From contig CAZVKH010000003.1 of assembly GCA_964627095.1 (NCBI GenBank), forward strand, positions 21,248-85,247: DNA of 64,000 nt, written 5' to 3'. Source of the DNA: an uncultured Candidatus Saccharibacteria bacterium. GTDB lineage: Bacteria > Patescibacteriota > Saccharimonadia > Saccharimonadales > JAUPVS01. Under the pieces are notes generated by a model. The model ran no database searches. It was not told where the DNA came from and worked only from the letters and a program-made list of their open reading frames with translations. Made by a program: the position numbers and the translations under genes. The stretch's first letter is position 1. Every line of letters begins with the position of its first letter. Shown one piece after another: positions 37,095 to 60,816 of this stretch.

Positions 37095-37111
37095 TGGTGA
37101 GCTCTAGGGGA
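37095..37111 (-). repeat. Degenerate copy of the tRNA-Glu 3' end (candidate att-site repeat, left junction)
   Basis: TGGTGAgCTCtAGGGGA against TGGTGAcCTCaAGGGGA at 60776-60792. That is 15 of 17 identical in the same orientation. Weaker gapped similarity continues to about 37133 (GAACaCCCTAT against GAACCCCTAT). Confidence 0.6.
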
Positions 37112-37193
37112 TTTTTCTGGAACACCCTATACAAAGGTATTCTAGATTTAGACGCTAAGCTTGTCGAGCTTGGAATAGATGAGGAGATGCAAG

Positions 37194-37679
37194 ATGTTTA
37201 AACTTCTCCGCAAGAAAACTGTTCCAGGGCAAGATCTGCTAGACTCACAGCTATTCGATGAGAGTACTTTTTATAAGGCTTTTTCCAGAGATCTTAAAAG
37301 CGCTAGGAGCAACGTCATTATCGAAAGCCCATACCTGACCGAAAAAAGAGCCCTTCAGTTAGCTAGAACGTTAAAACGCCTAAAGAAGAACCGAGTTAAA
37401 GTCAGAGTTAATACTAGAGAACCAAGGCATCACGACAAGCACCTTGAGATACAAGCTTGGAAAGCCATTAAGGTTTTGCGAAAATCTGGCGTTAAGGTTT
37501 ATGTTTGTAGTGACCTGAGGCACAGAAAGTTGGCGATCATAGATAACCAAATACTTTGGGATGGCAGCCTGAACATACTCTCGCAGTCCAATAGTAAAGA
37601 GGTTATGCGCAGAACAGCCTCGGCTACTCTATGCAAGCAAATGGCGTGTTTTACAAGATTAAATAATAGGTATTGGTGA
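37194..37679 (+). CDS. Single-HKD phospholipase D family protein (Nuc-like nuclease)
   Basis: HKD motif HRKLAIIDNQILWDGSLNILSQS. GAGGAG lies 7 nt before the ATG at 37194. Confidence 0.7.
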   Translation: MFKLLRKKTVPGQDLLDSQLFDESTFYKAFSRDLKSARSNVIIESPYLTEKRALQLARTLKRLKKNRVKVRVNTREPRHHDKHLEIQAWKAIKVLRKSGVKVYVCSDLRHRKLAIIDNQILWDGSLNILSQSNSKEVMRRTASATLCKQMACFTRLNNRYW

Positions 37680-37683
37680 TATT

Positions 37684-37893
37684 ATGGATAAGATGAGTGG
37701 ATACGAAATTACAGAGCAAGACATACAGTCAGTTGTTAAGTGGCTCAAAGACCGTGATCCAGCAAACGCAAATGAAGAGTTTGCCAAAGAAATGCTATTG
37801 GCGATGAAAATGAGCTATAGAGAAATCGGACAAGCTGACCCCGATGCTTTGGAGAAGTTTTATACAAACTTTAAGCAAATAAACCAAAACTAA
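37684..37893 (+). CDS. Hypothetical small protein
   Basis: 69-aa ORF located 4 nt after the PLD gene. Confidence 0.4.
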   Translation: MDKMSGYEITEQDIQSVVKWLKDRDPANANEEFAKEMLLAMKMSYREIGQADPDALEKFYTNFKQINQN

Positions 37894-37961
37894 CAGTCAG
37901 TTGGAGTTCTGTATCTGGAGTTAATATTTACAAACTCCCTGTAACATTGTATTGTTATTTT

Positions 37962-38408
37962 ATGTTTGACTTTGATGACACCTCCCCTAACCGGTACGAA
38001 GGCATGTCAATTCAAGAAATCATTGATGAAGCACTTGGTAGGTTAGATGCAATTGTTTTATCCCCTGAACAGGCAAAAAGAATATTGCCTTACCGACTAG
38101 AGATGCTAGGCAAGGTAATGGAAACACTAGAGCCAGACGAGTTCGTGAGTGATGAAATATACGCACTGGCAGAAATTGCTGCAAGTACTGAACCCAGATC
38201 GTTCGGTGAAGTGTTTAGGCGTTACCACATTAGTTCGGCAGACCAGCTTGGTATGGGAGGTGTGCACGAAACAAGCCTAGCAAATGATTACGAGGGCGCC
38301 GGTGAAAATCAGGGTGTTATTTGGAGCGAAATTGCATTTCAGGAAGTTGGCATTCAAAACGGATGGCGAGAGCCATTTGCGCCGTATGAAGGCATGACTG
38401 ACAACTAA
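37962..38408 (+). CDS. Hypothetical strongly acidic protein
   Basis: By my count there are about 29 Asp/Glu against about 10 Arg/Lys. The start is uncertain (TTG at 37947 or ATG at 37962). Confidence 0.4.
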   Translation: MFDFDDTSPNRYEGMSIQEIIDEALGRLDAIVLSPEQAKRILPYRLEMLGKVMETLEPDEFVSDEIYALAEIAASTEPRSFGEVFRRYHISSADQLGMGGVHETSLANDYEGAGENQGVIWSEIAFQEVGIQNGWREPFAPYEGMTDN

Positions 38409-38620
38409 AACGGCAAAACGTCTGAAGCTTTCACGCCCAACGCCTTAACGAGACGCTCCAGCATCTTCAGGGAAGGCATTACTTCTCCACGCTCAACCTT
38501 GGCGTAATAGTTGTCTTTAGTGCCAGCTTTTTTAGCTACTTCGAGCTGAGTCATGTCTTTCTCCATGCGTGCTTGTTTCAGGTTCTTGGCAATACTTGCT
38601 TTAATGCTTGTCTCATTCAT
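38405..38620 (-). CDS. XRE family helix-turn-helix transcriptional regulator
   Basis: 71 aa with MTQLEVAKKAGTKDNYYAKVERGEVMPSLKMLERLVKALGV, typical of HTH_3. Confidence 0.8.
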   Translation of the reverse strand: MNETSIKASIAKNLKQARMEKDMTQLEVAKKAGTKDNYYAKVERGEVMPSLKMLERLVKALGVKASDVLPF

Positions 38621-38866: not shown

Positions 38867-39208
38867 ATGCGAAGCAAAAAACTACTGTTTATAGCAATAC
38901 TAGTAGCATTTGGGCTGCCGATTATCCTCCCCGACGCAGCCTTAGCGCAAGGCTCGGGTGATGTCGGACAAGTCGAAAGCTTTATCCGCAACGTCATCCA
39001 GGTCATAGCAGGATTAGCCGGTCTCATAGCGACCGGCTTTTTTGTTGTCGGGGGTTTTGGATACATCACCAGCTCGGGCAATCCGGAGAATCTTGAAAAG
39101 TCCAAGCGGACTATCATCTTCTCAGCGACAGGGTTAGCCATAACCATAGGGGCGTTTGTGCTCAGTAACATCGTTACTGGGCTAGCATCTAACGCCTTTG
39201 GAGGGTAA
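38867..39208 (+). CDS. TrbC/VirB2-like T4SS pilin
   Basis: Signal peptide ending AALAQG and two hydrophobic helices flanking YITSSGNPENLEKSKR. Strong RBS GGGAGGAAGG. It is the first gene of the T4SS operon. Confidence 0.6.
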   Translation: MRSKKLLFIAILVAFGLPIILPDAALAQGSGDVGQVESFIRNVIQVIAGLAGLIATGFFVVGGFGYITSSGNPENLEKSKRTIIFSATGLAITIGAFVLSNIVTGLASNAFGG

Positions 39209-39214
39209 GCGAAG

Positions 39215-40474
39215 ATGGATTTTGCCACTCAAGCAGTAACTTGGGTGGCACAGTTTGCCGCCATCAATGCTGATGTTCAAAACTACCTAAAACCCCTGAT
39301 GCTCAGTCTGATTGGGCTGGCAGGCGTAGTTTCAACATTCTTTATTGTCACCGCTGGCATCGAGTATATGACTAGTGCTGGGCATCCAGAGAAGTTAGGT
39401 CACGCAAAGAGAGTTCTACGCAATGCAATTATCGGACTGGTTATTGTTATTGCAGCCGGAACCTTGACCGCCATTCTTTCCTCTGCCTATAACGATGCTG
39501 GCGGTTCAAATATAACCAACATTCCAGCACTTACCCCTGTCGATACCCAGGATGGTGGCGGTGGCATAACCGAAGTGCTGATTAACGCCATTATTGGCTT
39601 GTTCAAACACATAATTGAGACGGCTGGAAAGCCGTTTATTAGTGCGCTGGACTTCTTTACGCACAGTACGCCACTGATGGCTGATAACCCCAGTGTCTTT
39701 AATCTTTGGTTGACAGTTGTCGGTATTGCCAACGCATTGTTCGTGCTGGTTGTGGCACTTCTGGGCTTCCATGTCATGAGCGCTGCTAGCCTAGGGCTGG
39801 ATGAGATTGAATTCAAGCACTTGCTTCCTAGGCTTGGCGCCACATTCCTGCTCATGAACATGTCCATCTTTGCCATTGATATCGTGATTAGCCTATCAAA
39901 TATCATGATAAAAGCTATTGAAAATGCCTATAACTCACTGAATGTTTGGGATGCGCTCGGTGGCGTAGCTGACGGCGCTGGTAGCCAAGGACTAGTCGCA
40001 CTGCTGGTCATGATTGTATTCATGATACTGGCTGCAATTCTGCTGATCTACTACGTCATGCGTATTGTAACGCTTTACGTGGGAGCTATTTTGTCGCCAG
40101 TTGTCATTATGCTTCAGGTGTTGCCAGGCTTTCGGGACTTTACGGCTACGGCTATTAAAACCTACTTCACAACTGTGTTTGTGCTGTTTGTGCACGTCAT
40201 TATCCTGACCCTGGCTGCGTCGCTGTTTAATGGCTTGCGTAACGATGGTGCCGAACAGCCATACGATCCTGTTATGGCCATGGTTATTGGTATTGCCTCG
40301 ATTATAGCCCTACTGAAAACCCAAGGCGTCATGATGCAGCTTAGTTACGTTAGTGTCGGCCCAAGAGCCCTCAGAAAACTTGGTGGTCAGTTTATAAACG
40401 GCGTGAGCTACACCAGCAACAAAGTCAAAGCCGCCCGAAACGTAAGACCCGTGAAAGGAACAGCAACCAAATGA
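39215..40474 (+). CDS. VirB6/TrbL-like polytopic membrane protein with an N-terminal VirB2-like pilin module
   Basis: Residues 1-95 repeat the pilin pattern of the upstream gene (AGIEYMTSAGHPEKLGHAKR against GFGYITSSGNPENLEKSKR). They are followed by about 6 TM helices. Confidence 0.55.
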   Translation: MDFATQAVTWVAQFAAINADVQNYLKPLMLSLIGLAGVVSTFFIVTAGIEYMTSAGHPEKLGHAKRVLRNAIIGLVIVIAAGTLTAILSSAYNDAGGSNITNIPALTPVDTQDGGGGITEVLINAIIGLFKHIIETAGKPFISALDFFTHSTPLMADNPSVFNLWLTVVGIANALFVLVVALLGFHVMSAASLGLDEIEFKHLLPRLGATFLLMNMSIFAIDIVISLSNIMIKAIENAYNSLNVWDALGGVADGAGSQGLVALLVMIVFMILAAILLIYYVMRIVTLYVGAILSPVVIMLQVLPGFRDFTATAIKTYFTTVFVLFVHVIILTLAASLFNGLRNDGAEQPYDPVMAMVIGIASIIALLKTQGVMMQLSYVSVGPRALRKLGGQFINGVSYTSNKVKAARNVRPVKGTATK

Positions 40475-40974
40475 AAACCACTGTCGTACCAGCCCAAATA
40501 ACTACTGTCGAGGATAAGATTGCTGGCAACCTCAACTTTACTCAGCTTTTACTGTTGATAGCGCCGATATTCCTTGGTGGCGCTGTCTATGCCTTTATGC
40601 CACCCGTTATTAGCTACACACTGCCAAAGACTGTCATAGTCATTTTACTGGCTCTAATTTGCATAACCCTAGCCATTCGTATTAAGGGTCATCTGATCCT
40701 GGAATGGATCGGTATTAAGTCTAGATATAACTTGCGGCCAAAGCGCTATGTCTATAACAAGAATGATATTTTTCTTCGCAAGGTTGAACAAAATAATGCC
40801 GATACTAAGCCAAAGAAAGCTCAGATCAAGAAAACCAAGATCAAGCTGGAGCCACGAACTGCACTACCCAAACTGATACAAATTGAACACATGATCACTG
40901 ACCCAAAGTCAGACTTTCACTTTAAGGCCAATAGAAAAGGAGGACTCAGTGTCCATATTAAGGAAGTCAAATAA
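40471..40974 (+). CDS. PrgI/VirB3-like T4SS membrane protein
   Basis: The N-terminus VPAQITTVEDKIAGNLNFTQLLLL plus two TM helices matches the PrgI-family pattern. It lies directly upstream of VirB4. Confidence 0.5.
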   Translation: MKTTVVPAQITTVEDKIAGNLNFTQLLLLIAPIFLGGAVYAFMPPVISYTLPKTVIVILLALICITLAIRIKGHLILEWIGIKSRYNLRPKRYVYNKNDIFLRKVEQNNADTKPKKAQIKKTKIKLEPRTALPKLIQIEHMITDPKSDFHFKANRKGGLSVHIKEVK

Positions 40975-41560
40975 GAAGCAGTCGTCAAGGCGACAGATCC
41001 GCATTGAGGGTGTGCGTGATGGTATTCTGATTCTTCCGGGTGGTCAGTACCGTGTGATCTTACAGATTTCGTCAATCAACTTCGAACTGATGAGCGAAGA
41101 CGAACAGGATGCCATTATTGACGCCTACCAGAACTTCCTCAACTCCCTTAATAATCCATTCCAAATTTTAGTTCGGGTGCGAGAACTCGATATGGACAAG
41201 TACTTAGAGGACTTTGCTGGCAGGGTTTCAAGCGAGAAAACTAAAGTCTATAAAGACCAAGCTAAAAACTACACCGACTTCGTAAAAGGTCTGGTTTCTA
41301 CAAACAAGATCCTATCTAGAAGCTTTTATATCGTTTTACCTTACAGCGCCAAGGACAAAGACTTCTCAGAAGTCCGTGAGCAACTACGCATGCGCGTTGG
41401 CATTACAACAAAGGGCTTAGGCAAACTAGGCATGCAGACCAGTCGGTTAAACAGTCTTGACGCTTTAGATTTGTTCTACAGCTTCTACAACCCCGCTCGA
41501 GCCAAGCGCCAACCACTCAAAGACCAAACGATGAGCATGCTAGAGAGGAGCTACCTATGA
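40949..41560 (+). CDS. VirB4-family ATPase, N-terminal portion as a separate ORF
   Basis: GTG start. IRIEGVRDGILILPGGQYRVILQISSINFELMSEDEQDAIIDAYQNFLNSL resembles the N-terminal region of Gram-positive VirB4 proteins (TrsE/PrgJ/ConE). Its stop overlaps the next ATG (ATGA). Confidence 0.6.
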   Translation: MSILRKSNKKQSSRRQIRIEGVRDGILILPGGQYRVILQISSINFELMSEDEQDAIIDAYQNFLNSLNNPFQILVRVRELDMDKYLEDFAGRVSSEKTKVYKDQAKNYTDFVKGLVSTNKILSRSFYIVLPYSAKDKDFSEVREQLRMRVGITTKGLGKLGMQTSRLNSLDALDLFYSFYNPARAKRQPLKDQTMSMLERSYL

Positions 41561-43305
41561 AGCTAGCCTTACCTAATCCCAAAGATAAGGTTTTGTCTTG
41601 GAAGAAAGCCCGAGATGAAAAACCCAAGGACTACACCCTAGAGTTTGGCGAACAGGATCCGATGGACGCCATAAGCTACTCAGGGCTACAAGAGGAACCA
41701 GATTACCTCATAATTGACGGTATTTACGTGAGAACTCTGTTTATATCTGGCTATCCCTTTGTTGCTAATTCCGGCTGGCTTAACAGCCTTATAAACTTCA
41801 ATAACAATGTTGATATCAGCTATCACATCACACAGGTCAATGCCACCAAGGCTCTACCAAAGCTGCACCGTAAAATCACCGAACTGGAAAGCACCAAGCG
41901 AACCCTCATTAAAGCTGGCAAGATTGTCGGGCCAGAAGTTACCGATCCGCTTGAATCAGCTACTGAGCTGCGTGACAAGATCCAACGAGGCCAAGAGATG
42001 CTGTTTCAAACCTCAATTTATGTAGCCCTGACGGCACCGACACTGGCCGAGCTAGATAAAACTACCAACCTGCTTGAAACTGCCCTAGCAGCGCGTTTGT
42101 TCTTTACTAAAAGCGCCCGCTACCAACAAATTGAAGGGCTGCAATCAATTCTGCCAAGAAGCGAAGACATACTTAACCAACGCCGCAACTTAGACAGCTC
42201 CTCGGTTGCTCTGACATTCCCATTTATGAGTTCTGAGTTGGTACAAGAATCCGGCATTCTCTACGGTGTTAACAAGTCTAATAACTCGCTGGTGATTTTG
42301 GATCGCTTTAGTTTGCACAATGCTAACTCCATCGTCTTTGCCCAAAGCGGTTCGGGCAAAAGTTATGCCACGAAAGTTGAGATCCTGCGCCAACTCATGC
42401 AAGGCACCAGCGTGATTGTCATTGACCCAGAGCGTGAATATAAACTGCTCAGTGAATCTGTTAAGGGCAGTTACGTAAAACTCTCCGCTAATAGCAAGCA
42501 AAAGATTAACCCATTTGATATTGCTAACAGAAGTACGCGAGTTAAGGACTTATCCGAGCACATTCAAGACTTAACTGAAGTCGTTAGTCTGATGGCTGAG
42601 GGGCTTGAGCCTGCCGAAAAGGCCGCTACAGATAAAGCCCTGCTTAACATGTACAAGAAAGCTGGTAAACACCAACCGATATTAAGTGATCTCTACCACG
42701 AGCTGAAGCTACTAAAGCAAACCAAGCTATGTGAAAGACTAGAAAAGTACATCTCAGGTTCTCTGGCTAATGTCTTTAACTCACCGAGTAATGTTAGCCT
42801 GGCCAACCGCTTGATTATCTTTGACATCAAAGACATGCCCGAATCACTCCGGCAAATCATGATGCTAATTATCTCTAACTTCGTGCAAAATCAGGTGAAG
42901 CACAAACCAAAGAAGCGTCTGTTAGTTATAGATGAGGGCTGGTTACTACTGGAACACGATGAATCAGCACGGTTTGTTTCAGGGCTGGTTAGACGAGCTA
43001 GAAAGTATTATCTGGGAGTGTCTATCATCTCCCAGCAAGCCAACGACTTTTTGAAGAACGACTACGGCCGGGCAATTGCCTCGCAAAGCTCACTTCGTAT
43101 TCTGATGCGTCAAGATACAACCACAATTAAAAATGTCGTTTCTCAGTTTAACTTGAGCGAATACGAATCAAACTTCCTGCTGACCTGCGATAAGGGCGAG
43201 GCACTGATCATTGCCGACAAGAATCACGTAGCCGTAAAAGTCGTTGCCTCCAAGAAAGAACACCCGTTAATCACCACCAACCCTGCGGAAATATATGATC
43301 TATGA
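41557..43305 (+). CDS. virB4: VirB4-family T4SS ATPase, C-terminal ATPase portion
   Basis: Walker A AQSGSGKSYATK and Walker B LLVIDEGW, plus the IDGIYVRTLFISGYP region. Confidence 0.85.
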   Translation: MKLALPNPKDKVLSWKKARDEKPKDYTLEFGEQDPMDAISYSGLQEEPDYLIIDGIYVRTLFISGYPFVANSGWLNSLINFNNNVDISYHITQVNATKALPKLHRKITELESTKRTLIKAGKIVGPEVTDPLESATELRDKIQRGQEMLFQTSIYVALTAPTLAELDKTTNLLETALAARLFFTKSARYQQIEGLQSILPRSEDILNQRRNLDSSSVALTFPFMSSELVQESGILYGVNKSNNSLVILDRFSLHNANSIVFAQSGSGKSYATKVEILRQLMQGTSVIVIDPEREYKLLSESVKGSYVKLSANSKQKINPFDIANRSTRVKDLSEHIQDLTEVVSLMAEGLEPAEKAATDKALLNMYKKAGKHQPILSDLYHELKLLKQTKLCERLEKYISGSLANVFNSPSNVSLANRLIIFDIKDMPESLRQIMMLIISNFVQNQVKHKPKKRLLVIDEGWLLLEHDESARFVSGLVRRARKYYLGVSIISQQANDFLKNDYGRAIASQSSLRILMRQDTTTIKNVVSQFNLSEYESNFLLTCDKGEALIIADKNHVAVKVVASKKEHPLITTNPAEIYDL

Positions 43306-46889: not shown

Positions 46890-46892
46890 AAA

Positions 46893-51915: not shown

Positions 51916-52084
51916 TGTAACACGTTTTTGTTGTGTTTTCTGTTTTTTTTCTGTCTTTCTGTGCTATAATTATGTCAAGCTAATCACACCGAGGTGGGCC
52001 GAGGTGATGAGCGATCCTTTCGCAGCTAAGATTCCGCGTTGCGCCTGGAGGGTAGAAAGCGGGACAGGAAGGATCTATAGTTAC

Positions 52085-52360
52085 ATGGCAGTCAGGATTC
52101 AGGCAATCACGAAACCAGCTGGCGATGATCGATATGAGGCAATTAGCCATTATTGGGCAAACAACAGCAGTGGCGTACTAGAGGGCTTTGAACGAGCATG
52201 GTTTATTGGCTATCTCGAAAGAGAGAACACATACGCCTATGTATCTGAGGATGGCGACAAAGCAATTTGCGACATCAAAGATAACGGCAACATCCGTTTC
52301 TTACAGACTCGTGCAGACGCATCTCAGGCTAACAATTTGTTAAGTCTTCCGCGGAAATAG
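52085..52360 (+). CDS. DUF3892-like protein
   Basis: From memory of the family, the C-terminal FLQTRADASQANNLLSLP resembles DUF3892. The M28 start (52085) gives the usual length of about 90 aa. The ORF track starts at 52004. Confidence 0.5.
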   Translation: MAVRIQAITKPAGDDRYEAISHYWANNSSGVLEGFERAWFIGYLERENTYAYVSEDGDKAICDIKDNGNIRFLQTRADASQANNLLSLPRK

Positions 52361-54318: not shown

Positions 54319-55379
54319 CTGCTAACCCCGAAGTCAATATACCACTTGTCGCTATCTCGCAGTTTGGAAAGTGTAAACGTATCACGACCATACTTCCTGA
54401 ACGTCTCGGAGGTAACAAGCTCGCCGGTCTTTAGAGCGCCTGCTTGCTCTAGTCTGCCTTTAAGCCACTTGCCGAGTATCTTGAGATCTTTTTCGGAACG
54501 TAGATTCTTACTGTTCTGGCCACTAATCTTACATGTAAACTCCCAGCCATCATCTGTAATTACCTCAATTACACCACCGTCACCGTCTTTGTCCGATTGA
54601 GGATAGCCTGGCAATGAGGTAACAGACTTAGGAACAATCAGTTCAACCTCATACCAAGAGCGAGGCATAACAAACTTCTGCTTATTCTCACGTCCTTTTC
54701 CATTAAAGGTATTGAGGTTACTCCTGGTCGCGTCGTCTGCCTTAAGAGCTATGGTAAAGCTAACGCTAGGGTCAATGTTTGCTGATACTAGCTTTACGGT
54801 TTCATCGGTTACTTTCTCCACACCATACTGGTCATTCAGTAGGGTGTTCTTAGACTGAACAACTTTTACGTCAGCTTCAGCAAAGGGTGTTGTTGCAACC
54901 TCGTTCAGCTTCGATATAAAGTCATTGACCTCGTCTGCGTCGCCATTCTCAAGAAGATAATCTACCTCGTATTGGCGGTTGGTTTTGTTCTCAATAATGT
55001 TCGTTAGATTGGATGAGCCAATTAACGATCCGATGTTACCGCCGTCTTTAGAAAAGCTCATTAGCTTTCCGTGAAACGGAAAAGTTACCACCATATATAC
55101 GCCACCAAGGTCTTTTTGACGTAGAAGCTGGTCTAGATCTTCAAGGGCTTGCTTTTGCTGTACGGATAATCCTTCGAAATAGTGCATGCCGATATTGAGC
55201 TGTATGAAAGGCCCACCATTAATTTCAATGATGTTCCGCAAATCAACTACAGCATCGGCTGAGATATAACCTGTGGCAATATTAAGTCTATCGGCAACTT
55301 CGATTAATTCTTTGAAGGTGTCGTGGTAGGTGCTGGACTGGGTTTTCAGCGGTGGATAATTTGAATACAGTAAGCTCAC
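54315..55379 (-). CDS. PLD-family restriction endonuclease (NgoFVII/NgoAVII/CglI R-protein-like) with a C-terminal DNA-binding domain
   Basis: The HKD-like motif FHGKLMSFS...GSSNLT lies in the N-terminal half. GTG start is 1 nt after the methylase stop. Confidence 0.65.
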   Translation of the reverse strand: MSLLYSNYPPLKTQSSTYHDTFKELIEVADRLNIATGYISADAVVDLRNIIEINGGPFIQLNIGMHYFEGLSVQQKQALEDLDQLLRQKDLGGVYMVVTFPFHGKLMSFSKDGGNIGSLIGSSNLTNIIENKTNRQYEVDYLLENGDADEVNDFISKLNEVATTPFAEADVKVVQSKNTLLNDQYGVEKVTDETVKLVSANIDPSVSFTIALKADDATRSNLNTFNGKGRENKQKFVMPRSWYEVELIVPKSVTSLPGYPQSDKDGDGGVIEVITDDGWEFTCKISGQNSKNLRSEKDLKILGKWLKGRLEQAGALKTGELVTSETFRKYGRDTFTLSKLRDSDKWYIDFGVSR

Positions 55380-55380
55380 T

Positions 55381-56454
55381 TTACTCCGTAGCTAATGATA
55401 GGTTAAGTTTTACACCACTTTCTATCTTACTACGTTCTTTAACAGATGCTAAGCCCTCTACGCGCCTCTTAGCCTCAAACACCGGCATTAGGTGCTCAGC
55501 CACAACTTTAGCGGCCACTGGAGGCACCGAGTTTCCTATTTGCCGACGAACTTCGGTGATTGAGCCTTCAAACACAAAATCGTCAGGGTAGCCGAATAAT
55601 CGGGCACGCTCTCTATTTGTAAGTGGGCGATGTTCTTCGAAGTGATAACCCCAAGTGCCACCACCGCCACCAGCGATGATAGTTGTTGATGGTTCGTCTC
55701 TGTGTAGCCTGCGATAAACGTGACTGATCATGCCTTTAACATAGTGTGGATTGTCTTTAGGTATTGCTGTGAAGTTTTTGCCCTCAGGAATGAGTTTCAG
55801 CTTTTCAACTGTACTCGGCATGATGCTCTGATGCTCGTTATTGTGTTTCACTTTCTCGACACCTTTCAGTGCTTCGCCAGCAGTAACGTAATTACCCGGG
55901 CCGTGCGTGGGCTCTGGAGGAGTAAATACAAAATCTATATCTGATCTAACGCCTACAATTAGAACTCGTTCTCGCAGTTGTGGCGCACCGTACTTTGCGA
56001 AGTTATAAAGATTGACATTTATCTCATATCCAACTGCTCGGAAGTCCTCAGCTATCTTGGCTATAGCTTTGCCACCGTTAGCGGTTATGAGGCCTTTTAC
56101 GTTTTCTGCGATGAAGACCTTAGGCATCTTAGTCTCAACAGCCTTAACAAAGTATTTGTATAGGTTGCCTCTGTCTGTTTCTAGACCGCCACGCTTAGAG
56201 ATCATCGAGAAATCTTGACAAGGGAACCCTCCAGTCATAATGTCGCAGTCAGGAATGTCATTGAAGTCTATATCCGTAATACTTTTTTCGACAATGTGAT
56301 CACCGAAATTTTTCGCATATGTTTTGCATGACCAGTGGTCAAAATCGTTAGCCCACACTACTTGATAGCCAGCTTGCACAAGGCCAAGGTCAAGTCCGCC
56401 ACATCCAGAGAACAGTGAAACTAATTTTGGCTTACTAAGTGTTTTCTTAGACAT
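55381..56454 (-). CDS. DNA (cytosine-5)-methyltransferase
   Basis: Motif I LFSGCGGLDLG, motif IV GGFPCQDFS, ENV, QLRERV and GNSVPP. The ATG at 56454 follows GAGGG. Confidence 0.9.
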   Translation of the reverse strand: MSKKTLSKPKLVSLFSGCGGLDLGLVQAGYQVVWANDFDHWSCKTYAKNFGDHIVEKSITDIDFNDIPDCDIMTGGFPCQDFSMISKRGGLETDRGNLYKYFVKAVETKMPKVFIAENVKGLITANGGKAIAKIAEDFRAVGYEINVNLYNFAKYGAPQLRERVLIVGVRSDIDFVFTPPEPTHGPGNYVTAGEALKGVEKVKHNNEHQSIMPSTVEKLKLIPEGKNFTAIPKDNPHYVKGMISHVYRRLHRDEPSTTIIAGGGGGTWGYHFEEHRPLTNRERARLFGYPDDFVFEGSITEVRRQIGNSVPPVAAKVVAEHLMPVFEAKRRVEGLASVKERSKIESGVKLNLSLATE

Positions 56455-56708
56455 GGTTACCCTCGTTTTTCTATTACGGTTATGCAATTGATAAATGTAG
56501 TATACATGAAAATTGTATGCCTCGCCGCACTTGAAATATTAAGAAATGATTACATTGCTAATCTGTTATGTGGATAACTCTTACTTTACGTAGGCTTTTG
56601 AGTGTACATCCCAAACTCCACTAGCAAGGTAGTACAAAGTCTCCACCTTGCCAGCGGAGCCTCTTGGGATTGTTTGTATGCCTGTTACATAAAGTAAAGG
56701 AGGCAGAC

Positions 56709-56981
56709 ATGCTAGAACAAACATCAACTTACAACGGTTGGAGCAACCGTGAAACGTGGTTAGCCAGTCTTTGGTTAACCAATGACCAAGGCAGCTACGC
56801 ACTGCTCATGGAAGCGCTGAGGACTGGTGACAGTGACTTTGCTCGAGCTGATTGGCTCGAGCAGCAGCTGCGTGAACAGCTTGCTGACGAAGCTGGTGGC
56901 GCTAGTATGTGGAGCGATCTGCTCAGTACAGCGTTTCACCGCATCAACTGGGTTGAGGTTATAGAGAATAACCAAGACTAG
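56709..56981 (+). CDS. Hypothetical protein (acidic, Trp-rich N-terminus YNGWSNRETWLASLWLTND)
   Basis: RBS AAAGGAGG before the ATG at 56709. No function recognised. Confidence 0.4.
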   Translation: MLEQTSTYNGWSNRETWLASLWLTNDQGSYALLMEALRTGDSDFARADWLEQQLREQLADEAGGASMWSDLLSTAFHRINWVEVIENNQD

Positions 56982-57016: not shown

Positions 57017-57529
57017 CTAATCTTTAATAACACTTCTGATAAAGTCATTCTTTGAACGTGTGTATATGTCTCGATTGTCTTTGTGCTTGGTCGCTAGGCT
57101 TCGTTTTAAGGTGGCATACTCTTCTGCTAGAGAAGCGTTATCTCTCAGACGGTCTCTAAACTTCAGTAGCGATTCAAATTCGCGGCTGTTTACGATGTGT
57201 AAGTAGACTGTTCGCTTTTCTCTTGGCCCCTTAGCAAAAAATCTGCGATCTGGCAGGTCAGGCTCTATTCCTTTATACCAGTAGCCTATTTTGGCTAGGC
57301 GATCTTTCCAGTCCTCAGCAATATCCAACGAGTCCACAAGAACAGCTATATCAAGAATTGGCTTTGATGGCATGTTAGGAATAGACGTGCTGCCAACATG
57401 TTCAATACGTCCAGCATCTATGCCTAGTGCTTTGCGTAAACTTTCTGCCTCAAGCTCATATATTTTTGGCCAGTTTGCATTGTATTCAACAAGTTCAACT
57501 GTTCCGCTTTTAAGTCCTAGATCTGCCAT
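57017..57529 (-). CDS. GrpB family (nucleotidyltransferase-fold) protein
   Basis: IEHVGSTSIPNMPSKPILDI and YLHIV motifs typical of GrpB. Confidence 0.7.
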   Translation of the reverse strand: MADLGLKSGTVELVEYNANWPKIYELEAESLRKALGIDAGRIEHVGSTSIPNMPSKPILDIAVLVDSLDIAEDWKDRLAKIGYWYKGIEPDLPDRRFFAKGPREKRTVYLHIVNSREFESLLKFRDRLRDNASLAEEYATLKRSLATKHKDNRDIYTRSKNDFIRSVIKD

Positions 57530-57532
57530 GTG

Positions 57533-57997
57533 TTACTCTAATTCATCCTGTGTAGGTGGTTCGAAAGTAGCGACCCATTTCTCTAAGTCATCTCTGGTGA
57601 AGTGAAGCATTCCGATTTCTTGGGTTTCAGGTCGTTCAGAAGATCTTCGCCAGAGCTCATCAATAGGAACATCTTGGTAGTCCAGTTTTACTATTGCTCC
57701 AAGAGCTTGAGCCTCTTCACGATACTTTTGTCGTTCAGTTCTTGACCAAAAGCCATTCTCAAGAATAACACTTTGCCCCAATGTCAGGAGCCTTTTACCT
57801 AGTTGCCACTGAAGTCTTTCTACTTGTTCTCGGGCTTGCTCGTGGTGTTCGTGGTCAAGCCTATGGTCGTAAAGGTCAGTAACCCACTCATCAGGTGAAA
57901 AACGGACAGCATTTTGTTCCTGCTCAATCTCTTTTGCACGTGTTGTTTTGCCTGAGCCAGGCAATCCAACCATCAGATATAAAGTTGGCTTGTTCAT
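57533..57997 (-). CDS. P-loop kinase-like ATP-binding protein (AAA_33/PNK-like)
   Basis: Walker A GLPGSGKTT at the N-terminus of a 154-aa protein. Confidence 0.65.
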   Translation of the reverse strand: MNKPTLYLMVGLPGSGKTTRAKEIEQEQNAVRFSPDEWVTDLYDHRLDHEHHEQAREQVERLQWQLGKRLLTLGQSVILENGFWSRTERQKYREEAQALGAIVKLDYQDVPIDELWRRSSERPETQEIGMLHFTRDDLEKWVATFEPPTQDELE

Positions 57998-58016: not shown

Positions 58017-58835
58017 TTACAGATGAGCTAGCCCACTGTTCTGACCCGTCCAGATATCTTTGGTGGCTCCGTCTAGTAGAGACTTCGTTGAAGTTGTCAT
58101 AAACCTCAGATCCTCTTCGTCTATATAGTTGTTATCTAGAGCCGTTTGGATGTGTTTGTGGAGTTTTTCTTCGGTTCTGGCATCCTGGCAGGCTATCAGG
58201 ATGGTTGGGTATTGATTGTTTGGCCAGTCACCGGACTCAAAGTGCTCAACGTAGGCATCTATGCGCTTCTTGATAATAAAGAACTGGGTGTCGGTGAAGA
58301 TGTCCAGTAGGTATTCGTTTGGCTGGTCTTCGGCCGGCTCTTTTCGGCTTAGGTAGAGATCTGGCAGCTTTTCTGGCATGTAGTCCAGCTCAGCTGTTTC
58401 TGACTTAGTGAAGATGCTGAAAGTGTCTTTGTAAGCTTCACGCAGGTTAAGGCAAGCCGTGAATACGTTTAGGTTATGATCAACAAAACTTTGGCTCAGT
58501 GATTTGTTTTTGTACATAAGATGCAGAGCCTTTTGGCTCAAACTATGTTCATCACGCAGTAGCTTCAATCCTTTTGAGACTAGAAAGTAACTAGCAGGTT
58601 TCCCAAGTAGCTTGTACGACTTGTCATAACGCCGAGATATATAGCCTTGATCCATAAGTATTGATAATGTGTTGTTGACCGATCTTGGACTAACTTTCTT
58701 TTGTCTGGCTAATAACTCAGCAGATGCAAACCTGAATTTGAAGAGCAGCTTTAAGAGATGCACTTGCTTGCTGTTTAATTTAGTTTTATGGGCATCCATA
58801 TACGTAAGTATATAAGAGAGATAGTAAATAGTCAT
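58017..58835 (-). CDS. Replication-relaxation-like wHTH protein (candidate replication/transfer initiator)
   Basis: The N-terminal pattern LNSKQVHLLKLLFKFRFASAELLARQKKVSPRSVNNTLSILMDQGYISR resembles the Replic_Relax family as I remember it. The real start may be M13 (58799). Confidence 0.45.
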   Translation of the reverse strand: MTIYYLSYILTYMDAHKTKLNSKQVHLLKLLFKFRFASAELLARQKKVSPRSVNNTLSILMDQGYISRRYDKSYKLLGKPASYFLVSKGLKLLRDEHSLSQKALHLMYKNKSLSQSFVDHNLNVFTACLNLREAYKDTFSIFTKSETAELDYMPEKLPDLYLSRKEPAEDQPNEYLLDIFTDTQFFIIKKRIDAYVEHFESGDWPNNQYPTILIACQDARTEEKLHKHIQTALDNNYIDEEDLRFMTTSTKSLLDGATKDIWTGQNSGLAHL

Positions 58836-58905
58836 TATTATATCTGTTAAGAATTGTATATTTATTGCTTATCGGTAGGTAATAAAATATTACAACGCTA
58901 ATGTC

Positions 58906-58934
58906 TTGAACTGTCCTAAATAAGGTAGTATACT
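58906..58934 (+). promoter_or_regulatory. Candidate promoter of the recombinase operon, overlapped by direct repeats
   Basis: TTGAAC-17 nt-TATACT. Direct repeats ACTGTCCTaaATAaGGTAG (58910-58928) and ACTGTCCTtatATAGGTAG (58932-58950) cover the -35/spacer and the -10/+1 regions. Confidence 0.5.
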
Positions 58935-58966
58935 GTCCTTATATAGGTAGGTATATAGAGGGTAAA

Positions 58967-59116
58967 ATGGCTAGAACAAAAGGTGCGAAGAACAAGCAAA
59001 AGATACCACCCGTTCTTACGTTATCTCAGGAAGAACGCGTAGAACTCCTAGCCAAAATTCTTGTTGAGATTGTTGATGAGGAGCGACGGAGAGGCGAGCT
59101 ATGCAAGACTCCGTAA
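58967..59116 (+). CDS. Small basic/acidic protein (49 aa) upstream of and overlapping the recombinase start
   Basis: Manual reading gives MARTKGAKNKQKIPPVLTLSQEERVELLAKILVEIVDEERRRGELCKTP. GAGGG lies 5 nt before the ATG. It is too short for the ORF track. Confidence 0.4.
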   Translation: MARTKGAKNKQKIPPVLTLSQEERVELLAKILVEIVDEERRRGELCKTP

Positions 59117-60816
59117 ACGCTATAAACGCGGTTGCCGCTATACGGGTGTCTACTACCAAGCAAGGTACTGACGGTGATTCTCCAGAAGCCCAAAAGGAAC
59201 AGATCGAGCGATTTGCTGCCAATAAAGGGCTGGTGATTAAAAAGTTCTTTGTCTTTTTGGAATCAGCCAGTAAAGAGCAGCAGCCGATGCAGGAGGCTAT
59301 AGACTACTGTAAGGATCCAAAAAACGGCATCCAACTATTCATTATTAAGTCGATTGATCGATTTACCCGTGGTGGCTCGTTGTCATATGATCTGCTTAAG
59401 AATCAGCTGGAAAGTAGCCAAGTACGACTGATAGATATTTACGGGGTTATTAGCTCCGAACAAGTTAACACCCTTGAACACTTAGGCCTTGAGTACAAGT
59501 GGAGCGTGTATAGCCCTAGCAAGAAGTCTGAGATCTTAGAAGCAGAACGGTCGAAAGATGAACTACGCGACATTATGAGCCGTATGATCGGCGCTGAAAT
59601 CCGCTATACCCGCATGGGCTACTGGATGCGCCAACCACCCTATGGTTTTGTGAGCGAGAAAATAGAGACCAAGAACGGCAAAAGAACTATTCTTAAGCCC
59701 CACCCAGAGGAATCCAAATACATGATTAAAATGTATGAATTGCGGGCCGAAAGGCTGCTAAACGATCGGCAGATCGTCGATAAGCTCAACGATGCTGGCT
59801 ACCGATCAAGATTACGGTATTATCGCAGCAAACAAGACCGCACACGTATCGTAAGTAAACGTGGAGGTACGCCGTTAACTGTTAAAGCTATGCAAAAATT
59901 TCTTCGAAACCCGATATATGCTGGCATTAACGTCGAGAAGTGGACAAACGGAGAGCCTATTAAGTGTGCATTTGATGGACTAGTGCCTATTGATCTGTTC
60001 AATAAAGCCAACCGAGGTAAGCGCTATATCACTATGGATGATCAGGGCGAGTATATTATTCAGAACAAAAAACCACCTAAGCACCTAACAAATAAGGGTA
60101 TTAGAAATGCTGACTTCCCGTACCGAAAGTTTATTTTATGCCCTCAGTGCAACAGTCCACTACTAGGGAGTGCCTCAACGGGTAAGTCAGGAAAACGCTA
60201 TCCGGCATATCACTGCAGTAACCACGGCCACTACTTCCGTGTTCCTAAAGCCGAAATGGAAGCCAGAATATTAGACTTCATTAGCAACCTACAGGTCGAT
60301 CAGGAGCAGATAGAGCGAGTTATGTCCGTAATTGAGTCTGAGTACAGCAAACGCCAAGAAACCATACAGGAGGAGCTGAACAGCCTTGATGGGCGTATAC
60401 AGGCACTGAAAGTCGAGGCAGAGGCTACCGTTCACAAAATCAAATTGCTTACTAACCAAACAGCACTTAAATATATGGAGGAGGAGCTTATGAAAATCGA
60501 AGAGCAAATAATCGCTCTAGAGGCTCAAAAAATCAAAAAAGCGGACGAAAGACCTGTAGAAATACAGCCAATACTGAAACGAGTACGATACTTCCTGGAA
60601 CACCTCGACGAACTACTTGTAAAACAGATTGATCCAGTCAGGAAAGCTCAGTTTTTCGGTGCTATTTTTGACAAACCCCCAACTTACGACGAAATAAATC
60701 CTGGAACACAAAAAACACCCTTTTTTACAGGGGTGAATCCGATATTCAAACTTGCTTCCGCTCAAAAATCTCTTATGGTGACCTCAAGGGGAATCGAACC
60801 CCTATTGCCGGGATGA
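59101..60816 (+). CDS. Large serine recombinase (integrase)
   Basis: Resolvase-type N-terminus AAIRVSTTKQ...SIDRFTRGG, a recombinase domain, the Zn-ribbon CPQCNSPL...YHCSNHGH and a C-terminal coiled coil. The last 41 nt overlap the tRNA-Glu gene on the opposite strand. Confidence 0.85.
   Translation: MQDSVNAINAVAAIRVSTTKQGTDGDSPEAQKEQIERFAANKGLVIKKFFVFLESASKEQQPMQEAIDYCKDPKNGIQLFIIKSIDRFTRGGSLSYDLLKNQLESSQVRLIDIYGVISSEQVNTLEHLGLEYKWSVYSPSKKSEILEAERSKDELRDIMSRMIGAEIRYTRMGYWMRQPPYGFVSEKIETKNGKRTILKPHPEESKYMIKMYELRAERLLNDRQIVDKLNDAGYRSRLRYYRSKQDRTRIVSKRGGTPLTVKAMQKFLRNPIYAGINVEKWTNGEPIKCAFDGLVPIDLFNKANRGKRYITMDDQGEYIIQNKKPPKHLTNKGIRNADFPYRKFILCPQCNSPLLGSASTGKSGKRYPAYHCSNHGHYFRVPKAEMEARILDFISNLQVDQEQIERVMSVIESEYSKRQETIQEELNSLDGRIQALKVEAEATVHKIKLLTNQTALKYMEEELMKIEEQIIALEAQKIKKADERPVEIQPILKRVRYFLEHLDELLVKQIDPVRKAQFFGAIFDKPPTYDEINPGTQKTPFFTGVNPIFKLASAQKSLMVTSRGIEPLLPG

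Follow-up and report, generated by a model that had tools for sequence, protein, structure and literature searches.

A probable integrative and conjugative element at the 3′ end of tRNA-Glu in a Saccharibacteria genome

The T4SSs published for Patescibacteria are described as chromosomal, usually far from a coupling protein (T4CP), without a relaxase and probably co-opted for a different function (PMC10633639; PMC12102498). The system of Southlakia epibionticum ML1 (SEML1_0006-0019; Wang et al. 2023, PMC10633639) belongs to the Patescibacteria T4SS clade, which is covered by the survey of Quinonero-Coronel et al. 2025 (PMC12102498). It is essential for epibiotic growth (PMC10633639) and is thought to be non-conjugative, as neither a coupling protein nor a relaxase could be recognised there (PMC10633639; PMC12102498). 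Elsewhere, a serine integrase, a PF13814 (MobC) relaxase and VirD4 form a known mobilisation module, which makes up streptococcal IME_Class_8 and related Firmicutes elements (Coluzzi et al. 2017, PMC5357655).

We analysed a window of 64,000 nucleotides from a Saccharibacteria genome, and every sequence compared with it is a metagenome assembly. Positions 37095-60781 are probably an integrative and conjugative element (ICE) whose own large serine recombinase inserted it at the very 3′ end of tRNA-Glu(UUC). The host is an ultra-small parasitic bacterium, and this putatively mobile 23.7 kb carries its own DNA-transfer machinery. Since the site is occupied here and empty in close relatives, a T4SS thought to be fixed in the chromosome can ride on a mobile element, which bears on the open question of what CPR T4SSs do.

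The insertion site

60776-60850, minus strand: tRNA-Glu(UUC); its 3′ end, 60776-60781, reads TGGTGA (attR core)
37095-37129, plus strand: attL; core TGGTGA at 37095-37100, then the element-side P′ arm GCTCTAGGGGATTTTTCTGGAACACCCTA
37069-37085, unstranded: terminator-like hairpin in the left flank (B arm of attL), outside the element

ARAGORN and Rfam agree on a single, intact tRNA-Glu(ttc), and TGGTGA is the reverse complement of its UCACCA-3′, i.e., the encoded discriminator and CCA end. As the initial annotation had reported, a copy of the tRNA 3′ end lies far to the left in the same orientation: TGGTGAGCTCTAGGGGA at 37095-37111 and TGGTGACCTCAAGGGGA at 60776-60792 are identical at 15 of 17 positions. 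Allowing up to three mismatches, this pair gave the only two matches in the window, with 0.07 expected by chance. The core followed by (G/A)AACACCCT recurs in L005, L064 and L070, either at a left end or at a tandem junction, and L009 has a variant, GGAATACGCT; core and conserved P′ arm are repeated across six independent elements. By comparison, the exchange point is the 6-bp core TGGTGA, with attL consisting of host flank, core and element arm, and attR of element arm, core and tRNA.

The empty site that the initial annotation proposed to look for, in which tRNA-Glu is immediately followed by the sequence left of 37095, was found in two related genomes, in several assemblies of read sets and in the closest relative identified, all of which join the left flank directly to tRNA-Glu. 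In L175 (GCA_030916945.1), bases 1-11696 align to window positions 23413-35119 and bases 11699-14937 to 60776-64000, with an identical tRNA-Glu at the join. In L170 (GCA_039915295.1), both flanks are collinear with the window and tRNA-Glu stands alone between them; the sequence 3′ of that tRNA, ACCAAATAAAATACCCCAGACTAGCTGGGGCACTTTATT adjoining TGGTGA, is homologous to the window left of 37095. L173 (MgtE 98% identical) keeps three small left-flank ORFs, immediately followed by tRNA-Glu. L170 and L173 have a homologous hairpin immediately 3′ of tRNA-Glu, and the junction order in L173 and L176-L178 is flank, hairpin, TGGTGA, tRNA. L171 carries a shorter member of the same element family at this locus. 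Judged by these alignments, 37095-60781 is an insertion, the whole interval being missing from the same site in related genomes; loss by an unrelated deletion is unlikely because the junction falls exactly at the core.

Composition also sets the interval apart, as had been expected. Its GC content is 0.442 (left flank 0.481, right flank 0.492), and its tetranucleotide profile lies at a distance of 0.22-0.31 from that of the flanks, compared with 0.11-0.18 for the left flank to approximately 34 kb. The flanking genes are of core and surface types: TIM, PGK, PK and MgtE to the left, and genes for a PKD protein and a histidine kinase to the right. That part of the initial annotation stands, as do its boundaries and the CPR (Saccharibacteria) origin.

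Gene content and the element family

37179-37679, plus: PLD-family (Nuc-like) nuclease (PF13091, E 9e-15; HxKxxxxD motif, HRKLAIID)
37684-37893, plus: small conserved 69-aa ORF of the left-end module (tblastn homologues)
37947-38408, plus: 153-aa ORF (ORF call; no match in Pfam or PADLOC)
38405-38620, minus: XRE-type HTH regulator of the left-end module (PF01381, E 7e-16)
38867-39208, plus: VirB2/TrbC-like pilin (PF18895, PF04956)
39215-40474, plus: VirB6/TrbL-like polytopic membrane protein with N-terminal pilin-like segment (PF18895; PF04610 at 25.8 bits, slightly under the 25.9-bit cut-off)
40471-40974, plus: PrgI (VirB3-like; PF12666)
40949-41560, plus: TrsD/TraC-N-like protein, related to the VirB4 N-terminal region (weak PF11130 match)
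41557-43305, plus: VirB4 ATPase, Patescibacteria T4SS clade (PF19044, PF12846)
43302-43961, plus: M23 peptidase (PF01551), probably the T4SS cell-wall hydrolase
43894-46509, plus: VirD4/TraG-type T4CP (PF02534, PF10412, PF12696; Walker A GGTGNGKTT)
46605-50523, plus: cargo 1, copper resistance (CsoR, 122-aa ORF, DUF305, DUF3105, P-type ATPase)
50717-51265, plus: 182-aa conserved hypothetical protein, semi-conserved in the backbone
51280-51915, minus: S24/LexA-like protein
52004-52360, plus: DUF3892-like ORF
52429-56487, minus: cargo 2, type II restriction-modification (Z1 helicase-like protein, NgoFVII-type endonuclease, Dcm C5-methylase; Pfam, and PADLOC Helicase_II at E 1e-204, REase_II and MTase_II)
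56664-56981, plus: DUF7249 protein of the right-end backbone (PF23907)
57017-57997, minus: GrpB protein and AAA_33 kinase-like protein (Pfam)
58017-58835, minus: Replic_Relax protein (PF13814, MOBC superfamily) with N-terminal winged HTH; candidate relaxase
58967-59116, plus: 49-aa ORF overlapping the recombinase start (ORF call)
59101-60816, plus: large serine recombinase (integrase; PF00239, PF07508, sub-threshold PF13408; motif AIRVSTTKQ)

Pfam and PADLOC bore out every gene call of the initial annotation (T4SS, restriction-modification, CsoR-copper operon, LexA-like protein, PLD nuclease and serine recombinase), although its inventory had missed the Replic_Relax protein and the HTH gene. 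It had also placed the recombinase directly beside the tRNA; the two are indeed adjacent, but the ORF extends 41 nt into the tRNA gene in antisense, so that its final 13 codons (RGIEPLLPG and the preceding residues) are antisense tRNA-Glu. Because the ORF crosses attR, the protein has a different C-terminal tail in tandem-type junctions; residues 550-571 have pLDDT below 50 in the AF2 model. Structures matched by that model include serine integrase-att complexes at full length (9dxh, 9dxd and 9dxf; E approximately 1e-16) and 3g13, a recombinase from a C. difficile conjugative transposon.

Related elements were seen in at least 167 species genomes, almost all of which bear the label of Saccharibacteria or of some other Patescibacteria group, and as far as sampled the family is confined to Saccharibacteria and related Patescibacteria. 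Its backbone comprises conserved ends (PLD nuclease, small ORF and HTH gene on the left; DUF7249, Replic_Relax and the neighbouring large serine recombinase on the right) and a VirD4-type T4CP, with variable cargo. The PLD nuclease is the first gene past attL in L005, L039, L075, L087 and L171 and the first past the junction in L009, L064 and L070, where the recombinase ORF runs straight into it. Homologues of the 69-aa ORF come after it in L005, L039, L064, L075 and L087, and the HTH gene keeps its position and strand in L005, L009, L171 and L174. In many loci, DUF7249 is found close to Replic_Relax and the recombinase, and L002, L003, L005 and L009 have a 49-55 aa gene where the window has its 49-aa ORF, a candidate directionality factor or regulator with no match in Pfam. 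Most members target tRNA-Glu; divergent ones use Leu, Arg, Gln, Lys or Asn tRNAs, always at the CCA end, and the recombinase ORF terminates within the tRNA in 61 of 80 GTDB loci. Tandem junctions fall exactly at the core, where the identity of L064 to L005 rises from 69% to 88%.

Cargo varies from element to element. The sister element L007/L003 has different cargo in place of the copper genes (the ATPase's best plasmid matches are annotated as copper-translocating P-type ATPases), and strains with identical VirB4, 96% identical to the window's, bear entirely different cargo. The semi-conserved 182-aa protein is 81% identical in L003 and has a homologue in L140; the AAA_33 protein is 87% identical in L003.

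The T4SS operon (38867-46509) runs from pilin to T4CP. Its TrsD/TraC-N-like protein, recorded as PF26593 TraC-like in relatives, agrees with TrsD of PMC12102498. More than 100 VirB4 proteins of Saccharibacteria share 73-96% identity with the window's VirB4. The link to a Gram-positive host suggested by the initial annotation is not supported: close relatives of VirB4 and the recombinase are all from Saccharibacteria or other Patescibacteria, and the best plasmid-borne matches reach 30-36% (VirB4; Firmicutes and Actinobacteria) and at most 23% (large serine recombinases of other phyla).

Taken as an ICE, the element would be excised as a circle by the recombinase, perhaps with the 49-aa ORF as directionality factor. 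The Replic_Relax (MOBC-type) protein would nick an oriT, and the VirD4-type T4CP would pass the DNA to the T4SS that the element encodes (pilin, VirB6, PrgI, TrsD, VirB4 and M23 hydrolase) for transfer into another Saccharibacteria cell, where the element would re-integrate at tRNA-Glu. Gene content points to self-transmissibility, and shorter relatives without a T4SS would be mobilisable elements that borrow one.

Alternative readings

The interval could instead be an excisable island whose T4SS is the epibiont's host-interaction apparatus and no conjugation machine, spread, if at all, by natural transformation or else inherited vertically, with the T4CP and Replic_Relax in other roles (e.g., effector recruitment or regulation). 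We consider this unlikely. The window T4SS is orthologous to the essential Southlakia system, in which neither coupling protein nor relaxase is recognised (PMC10633639; PMC12102498), Saccharibacteria are naturally competent (PMC12857230), and the earliest description of PF13814 proteins was as putative regulators fused to an HTH (PMC3424549). VirB4 is more conserved than the recombinase (73-96% and 54-87% identity), as expected for a strongly selected cellular function, and at GC 0.456 the T4SS segment is nearer the chromosome than the cargo is. Also counting against an ICE are the window's Replic_Relax match to PF13814 (E 4.6e-5; 24.0 bits, below the 25.3-bit cut-off), the lack of identifiable catalytic residues in this copy (its single-sequence structure model has pLDDT 38.6), and the fact that neither an oriT for the element nor a VirB8 homologue for its T4SS was found. 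PF13814 is matched by 31 of 39 members of the Replic_Relax family (best E 2e-13).

Genetic linkage argues against a purely cellular T4SS. T4CP, MOBC-type protein and serine integrase systematically occur together and in association with the T4SS: the T4CP follows VirB4 in 46 of 49 loci of the metagenome sample, Replic_Relax adjoins the recombinase in 48 of 59 loci, and at 20 of 43 metagenomic VirB4 loci a hallmark gene of the element is found no more than 7 kb past the T4CP, with attL-like sites beside PLD in several. Short members without a T4SS retain exactly T4CP (44% identical over its full length between the window and L005), Replic_Relax and recombinase, the classic mobilisation triad, which has no obvious part in effector secretion. 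The backbone phylogeny is also incongruent with the chromosome: recombinase identities are uncorrelated with those of PK, a neighbouring housekeeping gene (Mantel r 0.13, p 0.29) and correlated with those of Replic_Relax (r 0.68, p 0.002).

A relic that integrated in the past and is now immobile, with the imperfect repeat as a sign of decay, is improbable. The repeat copies do differ at two positions, and decay occurs in the family (Replic_Relax has stop codons in L030, L033, L038 and L067). However, both mismatches fall outside TGGTGA, and the G at position 7 is common to the L070 P′ arm and so is native to the element; beyond the core of approximately 6 bp, the repeat is an element arm that resembles the tRNA arm. 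In addition, the window's backbone ORFs are all intact, congeneric genomes are empty, and cargo is swapped in sister strains.

Less probable again is a tandem composite, in which a T4SS/T4CP island (37.1-46.5 kb) abuts a mobilisable element (46.5-60.8 kb) and the internal att site is lost. Tandem arrays (L009, L064, L070/L026), T4SS-less short elements and the slight GC difference between T4SS and cargo parts would fit this. Against it, the interval has no internal tRNA-like repeat and no second or degenerate copy of recombinase, Replic_Relax or PLD, and in L070/L026 the T4SS lies within a single att-bounded unit that runs from PLD through T4SS-T4CP to Replic_Relax-recombinase. The S24/LexA-like repressor and the tRNA-gene location of the serine integrase would fit an integrated prophage or phage-plasmid, but this is highly improbable, as capsid, terminase, portal and tail genes are all absent and the recombinase family is essentially missing from IMG/VR (one weak partial match).

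Comparison with known systems

The element shares with IME_Class_8 the three-protein module and its compact order (coupling protein, relaxase, integrase), and short members such as L005 and L171 look like IMEs of this kind. It differs in that the sequences are distant (recombinase at most 23% identical to plasmid-borne ones), the target is a tRNA CCA end into which the integrase ORF runs, a full T4SS is added and the host phylum is Patescibacteria. Gene set and order match the Patescibacteria-clade T4SS (VirB2-like pilin, VirB6, PrgI, TrsD, VirB4, peptidase). Unlike published examples, however, this T4SS lies between att sites and shares the interval with T4CP, MOBC-type protein and integrase, and congeners lack the entire block at this site.

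Firmicutes ICEs with large serine recombinases (Tn5397/TndX, Tn1549-like elements and CTn elements of Clostridioides difficile) likewise use such an enzyme to integrate and excise an element bearing a monoderm-type T4SS. They insert at short dinucleotide-centred or gene-internal sites, not tRNA 3′ ends, mostly use other relaxase families and are not known to have a VirB2-like pilin. Tyrosine-integrase islands and ICEs at tRNA genes (e.g., ICEclc at tRNA-Gly) share insertion at the tRNA 3′ end, a direct repeat that rebuilds the tRNA and tandem accretion at the site, but the recombinase here is of the serine type and the common core only approximately 6 bp. As with SSV1-type archaeal integrases, the att site lies within the integrase gene and integration changes the ORF, though here only a disordered C-terminal tail is swapped and the gene is not split. 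SCCmec/Ccr is similar in its large serine recombinase, its target at the 3′ end of a conserved gene and the short direct repeat left behind, whereas the window element, unlike SCCmec, encodes putative conjugation functions.

Chromosomal site and boundaries of the insertion

The initial annotation had proposed, from a first reading of the sequence, an integrated element with a type IV secretion system (T4SS) at tRNA-Glu, and had listed the genes on both sides as core or surface genes. The same chromosomal region was fetched from relatives (loci from other genomes or assemblies have L-numbers) via MgtE, 2.3 kb left of the repeat that marks the left end. In L175 (GCA_030916945.1), bases 1-11696 align with window 23413-35119 at 84% nucleotide identity and bases 11699-14937 align with window 60776-64000 at 89% identity, with an identical tRNA-Glu at the join. 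This locus is collinear with both sides of the join, so window 35120-60775 has no counterpart there. Three read-set assemblies (L176-L178) end in the same empty junction, and L170 (GCA_039915295.1) is collinear with both window flanks in the same way; the sequence abutting the 3' end of its tRNA, ACCAAATAAAATACCCCAGACTAGCTGGGGCACTTTATT-TGGTGA, has its homologue in the window left of 37095 (ACCAAAATAAAATACCCCAGTCAAGCTGGGGAACTTTATT-TGGTGA). The closest relative found, L173 (MgtE 98% identical to the window's), keeps the three small ORFs that precede attL, followed by hairpin-TGGTGACCTCAAGGGGAATCGAACCCC, which is tRNA and not element. L171 (MgtE 83%) has a shorter element of the same family at this locus (PLD, small ORF, HTH, VirD4-type coupling protein [T4CP] and further genes), along with a 20 nt tRNA-Glu remnant. 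Taken together, L175, L170, L173 and L171 therefore indicate that one site is empty, holds a short element or holds the 23.7 kb element across relatives.

The empty sites that an insertion predicts thus exist, i.e., tRNA-Glu is joined directly to the left flank in L170, L173 and L175-L178, and it is not the case that all relatives are filled. The expected difference in composition is also present (interval GC 0.442, versus 0.481 and 0.492 in the flanks), and by tetranucleotide usage the interval lies at a distance of 0.22-0.31 from the flank profile, against 0.11-0.18 for the left flank to approximately 34 kb. Gene calls agree that the flanks are ordinary chromosome.

Features of the element and its flanks (window coordinates)
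Left flank: MFS, UvrD, TIM, PGK, PK (pyruvate kinase) and MgtE genes, then small membrane ORFs
37095: attL
38405-38620: XRE-type HTH gene, new relative to the initial annotation
T4SS operon: VirB2-like pilin, VirB6/TrbL, PrgI, TrsD/TraC-like, VirB4, M23 peptidase, T4CP
43894-46509: T4CP (PF02534, PF10412, PF12696)
Copper operon: CsoR, DUF305, DUF3105, P-type ATPase
Restriction-modification: Dcm methylase, NgoFVII-type endonuclease, Z1 helicase-like protein
58017-58835: Replic_Relax (PF13814) gene, directly upstream of the recombinase, new relative to the initial annotation
58967-59116: conserved 49 aa ORF, candidate directionality factor
59101-60816: large serine recombinase, 571 aa, at the element end
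60776: attR
60776-60850, minus strand: tRNA-Glu(UUC) (ARAGORN; Rfam 63.9 bits)
Right flank: PKD surface protein, histidine kinase

This tRNA-Glu(UUC) is the window's sole tRNA gene (ARAGORN, Rfam), and its 3' end reads TGGTGACCTCAAGGGGA on the plus strand. The reported 15/17 copy of that end is TGGTGAGCTCTAGGGGA at 37095-37111, on the same strand as the tRNA-end reading, and it is the only other match in the window at three or fewer mismatches (chance expectation 0.07). Inside the window interval, neither a second tRNA-like repeat (an internal att) nor a second backbone copy was found. Past the core, the element-side arm (P' arm) is conserved among the window, L070, L005 and L064, and the position-7 G of the window repeat is common to the L070 arm; both mismatches of the 15/17 repeat therefore belong to the element arm. 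On these alignments, strand exchange must fall within TGGTGA, and the rest of the repeat beyond this core is, by the same reading, arm-to-arm similarity, as expected of half-sites with one binding protein. When attP dyad symmetry was scored in the window and L005 (both reconstructed) and in L009 (an observed junction), the best centre lay inside the core in all three sequences, with scores not above those of shuffles (P 0.19-0.89).

Junction and arm sequences
Predicted attP junction: ...GCTCAAAAATCTCTTA-TGGTGA-GCTCTAGGGGATTTTTCTGGAACACCC...
Predicted attB junction: ...CCCCAGTCAAGCTGGGGAACTTTATT-TGGTGA-CCTCAAGGGGAATCGAACCCC...
Core and P' arm, window: TGGTGAGCTCTAGGGGATTTTTCTGGAACACCCTA
Core and P' arm, L070: TGGTGAGCTTATCGAGATCAAGGTCAAACACCCTA
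Core and P' arm, L005: TGGTGACCTCACCGGGGTTGGAGCGGAACACCCTA
Core and P' arm, L064: TGGTGACCTCTCCGGGGATGGAGCGGAACACCCTA

Several other features of this neighbourhood were recorded. Between MgtE and attL (window 35134-37059) lie three small membrane or secreted ORFs (278, 157 and 195 aa; GC 0.42-0.47), which are outside the element; L173 has them too, and they are missing from both L175 and L170. At this position L171 carries different ORFs (one pilin-like with an N_methyl domain), and its short element carries an RVT_1 reverse transcriptase gene as cargo (L171 8952-10148). The pre-attL patch is thus variable in its own right, independently of the element, and is possibly a remnant of earlier elements. 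Many independent assemblies break at or within the att core or tRNA (L003/L007, L173, L176-L178 and 11 GTDB loci), as one would expect of populations in which filled, empty and tandem sites coexist. PK-PGK-TIM adjoins the 5' side of the tRNA, right of the recombinase, in several relatives (L004, L031, L037, L056 and L057); the window's block (31905-33335) is left of the element and in the opposite orientation, which points to an inversion spanning the element and tRNA or to differing ancestral arrangements. A tmRNA gene is present at 22168-22567 on the minus strand (Rfam RF00023, 63.2 bits; no ARAGORN call).

Gene content and the serine recombinase

The genes between the repeats are as first described: a PLD nuclease, T4SS operon, copper operon, S24/LexA-like gene, restriction-modification system and serine recombinase. 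No VirB8 homologue was detected in the element's T4SS, an absence that is usual in Patescibacteria (PMC12102498). The element is very unlikely to be a prophage, as its 27 ORFs include no virion structural or packaging genes and the recombinase family is essentially absent from IMG/VR (one weak partial match).

The recombinase is adjacent to the tRNA, as had been noted, but its ORF does not stop short of the tRNA gene, overlapping it antisense by 41 nt, so the last residues of the protein (…MVTSRGIEPLLPG) are encoded by the tRNA gene. Structure modelling predicts this tail to be disordered. The protein matches PF00239 (Resolvase) and PF07508 (Recombinase), with a sub-threshold match to the zinc ribbon PF13408 (Zn_ribbon_recom; 19.7 versus 25.3 bits), and the serine-recombinase motif A-I-R-V-S-T-x-K-Q is almost fully invariant across 21 homologues. 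Its AlphaFold model (pLDDT 69.7) has long helices at residues 401-482. In fold searches, the model matches the full-length serine integrase-att complexes 9dxh, 9dxd and 9dxf (E ~1e-16), and the catalytic domain resembles TP901-1, TnpX and a C. difficile conjugative-transposon recombinase. A profile of the recombinase found no match among PDB chains by sequence, so it represents a divergent clade, for which there are more than 100 full-length homologues at 63-87% identity. The C-terminus is set by the junction: beside the tRNA, the protein ends in 13 residues of antisense tRNA (60776-60816), and at recombinase-to-PLD junctions, the tail is 30-45 residues from the element's left end (L009 11676-11809).

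The Replic_Relax protein is the candidate relaxase. PF13814 corresponds to the MOBC relaxase superfamily in CONJscan terms and is equivalent to MobC (PMC5357655). The window copy scores 24.0 bits against this profile (cut-off 25.3), 31 of 39 family members match it (best E 2.2e-13) and all have an N-terminal winged HTH. A PD motif and downstream acidic/basic residues are common in the family, not invariant, and a single-sequence structure model was unusable (pLDDT 38.6). The genes of L030, L033, L038 and L067 contain in-frame stop codons, which suggests decaying element copies in some genomes or assembly errors.

The element family and signs of its movement

When one genome per GTDB species was scanned with two peptide patterns, at least 167 genomes proved to encode a relative of the recombinase, a minimum fixed by those patterns; 80 of the loci were then inspected. 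Every sequence used for comparison comes from a metagenome assembly, and homologues in these loci were sought by tblastn with the window proteins, so divergent genes were missed. The recombinase ORF ends antisense inside a tRNA gene in 61 of the 80 loci (39 tRNA-Glu(ttc), 13 tRNA-Glu(ctc) and, in more divergent members, nine Leu/Arg/Gln/Lys/Asn), and another 11 have a contig break at the ORF end. At all 16 junctions inspected, it is the 3' terminus of the tRNA gene that the ORF runs into, and in most this is an encoded CCA (TGG… on the plus strand); three are tRNA genes with no encoded CCA. An opposite-strand Replic_Relax gene adjoins the recombinase in 48/59 loci with enough sequence, and a T4CP lies within 10 kb in 18/44.

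Some members fall outside the usual pattern. Divergent recombinases (L016, L020, L066, L069, L071, L074, L076, L083, L086 and L088) overlap the 3' terminus of tRNA-Leu(taa), Arg(ccg), Gln, Lys or Asn in place of tRNA-Glu. In L095, L152 and L164, the serine recombinase is more distant (~22% identity) and lies next to tRNA-Trp or tRNA-Gln, with the T4SS-T4CP-DUF7249-Replic_Relax layout kept. The MAGs behind L024, L059, L069, L072, L079 and L083 bear Pedobacter, Gammaproteobacteria, Pseudomonadales or Eisenbacteria labels; GC (0.37-0.49) and gene content of these loci are CPR-like, so mis-binning is likely.

Short complete elements of 10.7 kb or less (L005/L011, L039, L075, L087 and L171) begin at the left with the flank terminator, TGGTGA, PLD, a small ORF and HTH. 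In L009, L064 and L070, the recombinase ORF instead crosses the core straight into a PLD gene, giving it a longer, different tail (…MVTS|VSMRWNTLY…). L064 was considered as a circular excised form, but it has no terminal overlap. By blastn, it is 69% identical to L005 up to the core and 88% identical from that exact point on, which makes it two different elements in tandem, linked through site-specific recombination. A free circle was not evidenced at any of these three junction loci.

The close homologues of the recombinase, VirB4 and MgtE derive without exception from Saccharibacteria/Patescibacteria assemblies, which upholds the CPR origin suggested at first; one member of the window's MgtE cluster is labelled "Patescibacteria group bacterium". 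The suggested link to a Gram-positive host is not supported, the nearest non-CPR plasmid relatives having at most 23% (recombinase) or 30-36% (VirB4) identity. The copper P-type ATPase (48502-50523) has its best plasmid-database matches on haloarchaeal plasmids (55-56% identity), and as a candidate Gram-positive link it is uninformative on Actinobacteria.

Within the phylum, strains with mutually identical VirB4 (96% to the window's) keep VirB6-PrgI-TrsD-VirB4-M23-T4CP, and one such contig also keeps h182 (a 182 aa conserved hypothetical protein), DUF7249, AAA_33, Replic_Relax and the recombinase; the DNA between the kept blocks is wholly different from the window's. For eight loci with a neighbouring PK, a small sample compared by identity matrices and not by tree reconciliation, recombinase and PK are uncorrelated (Mantel r 0.13, p 0.29), whereas recombinase and Replic_Relax are correlated (r 0.68, p 0.002). 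L037 and L057, for instance, have recombinases that are 85% identical and PKs that are only 50% identical, and the window and L056 have 75% for PK and 59% for the recombinase.

These comparisons demonstrate, at the level of sequence, insertion at the tRNA CCA end with exchange within TGGTGA. They likewise show that the end modules are conserved and the cargo varies, that elements accrete in tandem and that the target can switch from one tRNA to another. The tandem junctions at the core and the phylogenetic incongruence are indirect signs of excision and conjugative transfer. In the proposed cycle, the serine recombinase would excise the element as a circle, possibly aided by a directionality factor, for which the conserved 49 aa ORF and DUF7249 are candidates. 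The MOBC-type protein would then nick at a putative oriT, the T4CP would couple the DNA to the element's T4SS for transfer through it, and the element would re-integrate at tRNA-Glu.

The T4SS and comparison with known systems

Patescibacteria T4SSs are described as monophyletic, chromosomal and derived from monoderm conjugation machinery, usually lacking a relaxase and having their T4CP at a distance from virB4, and co-option has been suggested (PMC12102498). By sequence and by gene order (pilin-VirB6-PrgI-TrsD-VirB4-peptidase in both), the window's cluster is evidently an orthologue of this system. Its VirB4 has 73-96% identity to many Saccharibacteria proteins and 30-36% to VirB4 of Firmicutes/Actinobacteria plasmids. 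Unlike the published chromosomal T4SS, however, the window's sits inside an inserted interval with a T4CP, a MOBC-type protein and an integrase. A comparable unit is found on CALCZR010000060.1 (L070/L026), with the order PLD-pilin-VirB6-PrgI-TrsD-VirB4-M23-…-Replic_Relax-recombinase-tRNA-Glu, bounded at left by the recombinase of a preceding element.

We also surveyed VirB4 in 80 metagenomic Saccharibacteria loci (L090-L169). A T4CP follows VirB4, directly or after the M23 gene, in 46/49 loci with enough sequence, compared with a published survey in which only 148/5,713 Patescibacteria T4CPs were near virB4 (PMC12102498); the contrast may be particular to this clade or stem from the detection profiles. 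An element hallmark (DUF7249, Replic_Relax or recombinase-tRNA in the window's orientation, or an inverted PLD) occurs within 7 kb beyond the T4CP in 20/43 VirB4 loci, a count made with flanks limited to 10 kb, which leaves most far ends out of view. Several loci with an inverted PLD show an attL-like hairpin-TGGTGC/TGGTGA-…GTGGAACAC… site beside the PLD.

The prevailing picture is of a fixed machine, co-opted for epibiotic growth. We tentatively suggest instead that the Saccharibacteria T4SS could commonly be a module of a mobile ICE family (with serine integrase, MOBC-type protein and VirD4 coupling protein) moving from one tRNA gene to another. In that case the element itself would encode the "missing" relaxase and coupling protein, and the apparatus would be, or until recently have been, a working conjugation system, moving horizontally among Saccharibacteria. 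The main rival to the proposed transfer cycle is that the T4SS serves epibiosis only and that the island is moved otherwise or not at all. This agrees with the T4SS being essential for epibiotic growth of Southlakia epibionticum, a species in which neither a coupling protein nor a relaxase was recognised (PMC10633639; PMC12857230), and with two recent papers that regard it as probably repurposed (PMC10633639; PMC12102498); we consider this rival unlikely. If the T4SS is commonly part of mobile ICEs, an apparatus of host parasitism might deliver DNA to neighbours or hosts.

The element is of particular interest for its direct bearing on the debated role of CPR T4SSs. It combines a T4SS, coupling protein, MOBC-type candidate relaxase and integrase in one unit that is present or absent between congeners, lands at the CCA end of tRNA genes and changes its cargo (mostly defence systems across the family, with metal resistance too in the window). 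It thereby points to a specific way, open to testing, in which genes may flow within a phylum with almost no characterised mobile elements, adds a divergent serine integrase whose target is short and defined, and makes the question "conjugation or effector delivery?" experimentally addressable in cultivable, transformable Saccharibacteria.

Known ICEs and IMEs already include ones that combine a serine integrase with a MOBC relaxase and a VirD4 protein, and the window's element has several features of an ICE: its own recombinase, an att-bounded insertion with empty sites, a VirB4-bearing T4SS and a T4CP. The searchable literature yielded no description of this element family, of Saccharibacteria serine-recombinase ICEs or of a tRNA-Glu-overlapping recombinase. 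What appears undescribed there is the family in Saccharibacteria, its tRNA-CCA-end target with an integrase ORF reading into the tRNA and its ability to carry the phylum's characteristic T4SS. Among known systems, the streptococcal IME_Class_8 (PMC5357655) has the same trio: a PF13814 protein, a VirD4 coupling protein and a serine integrase.
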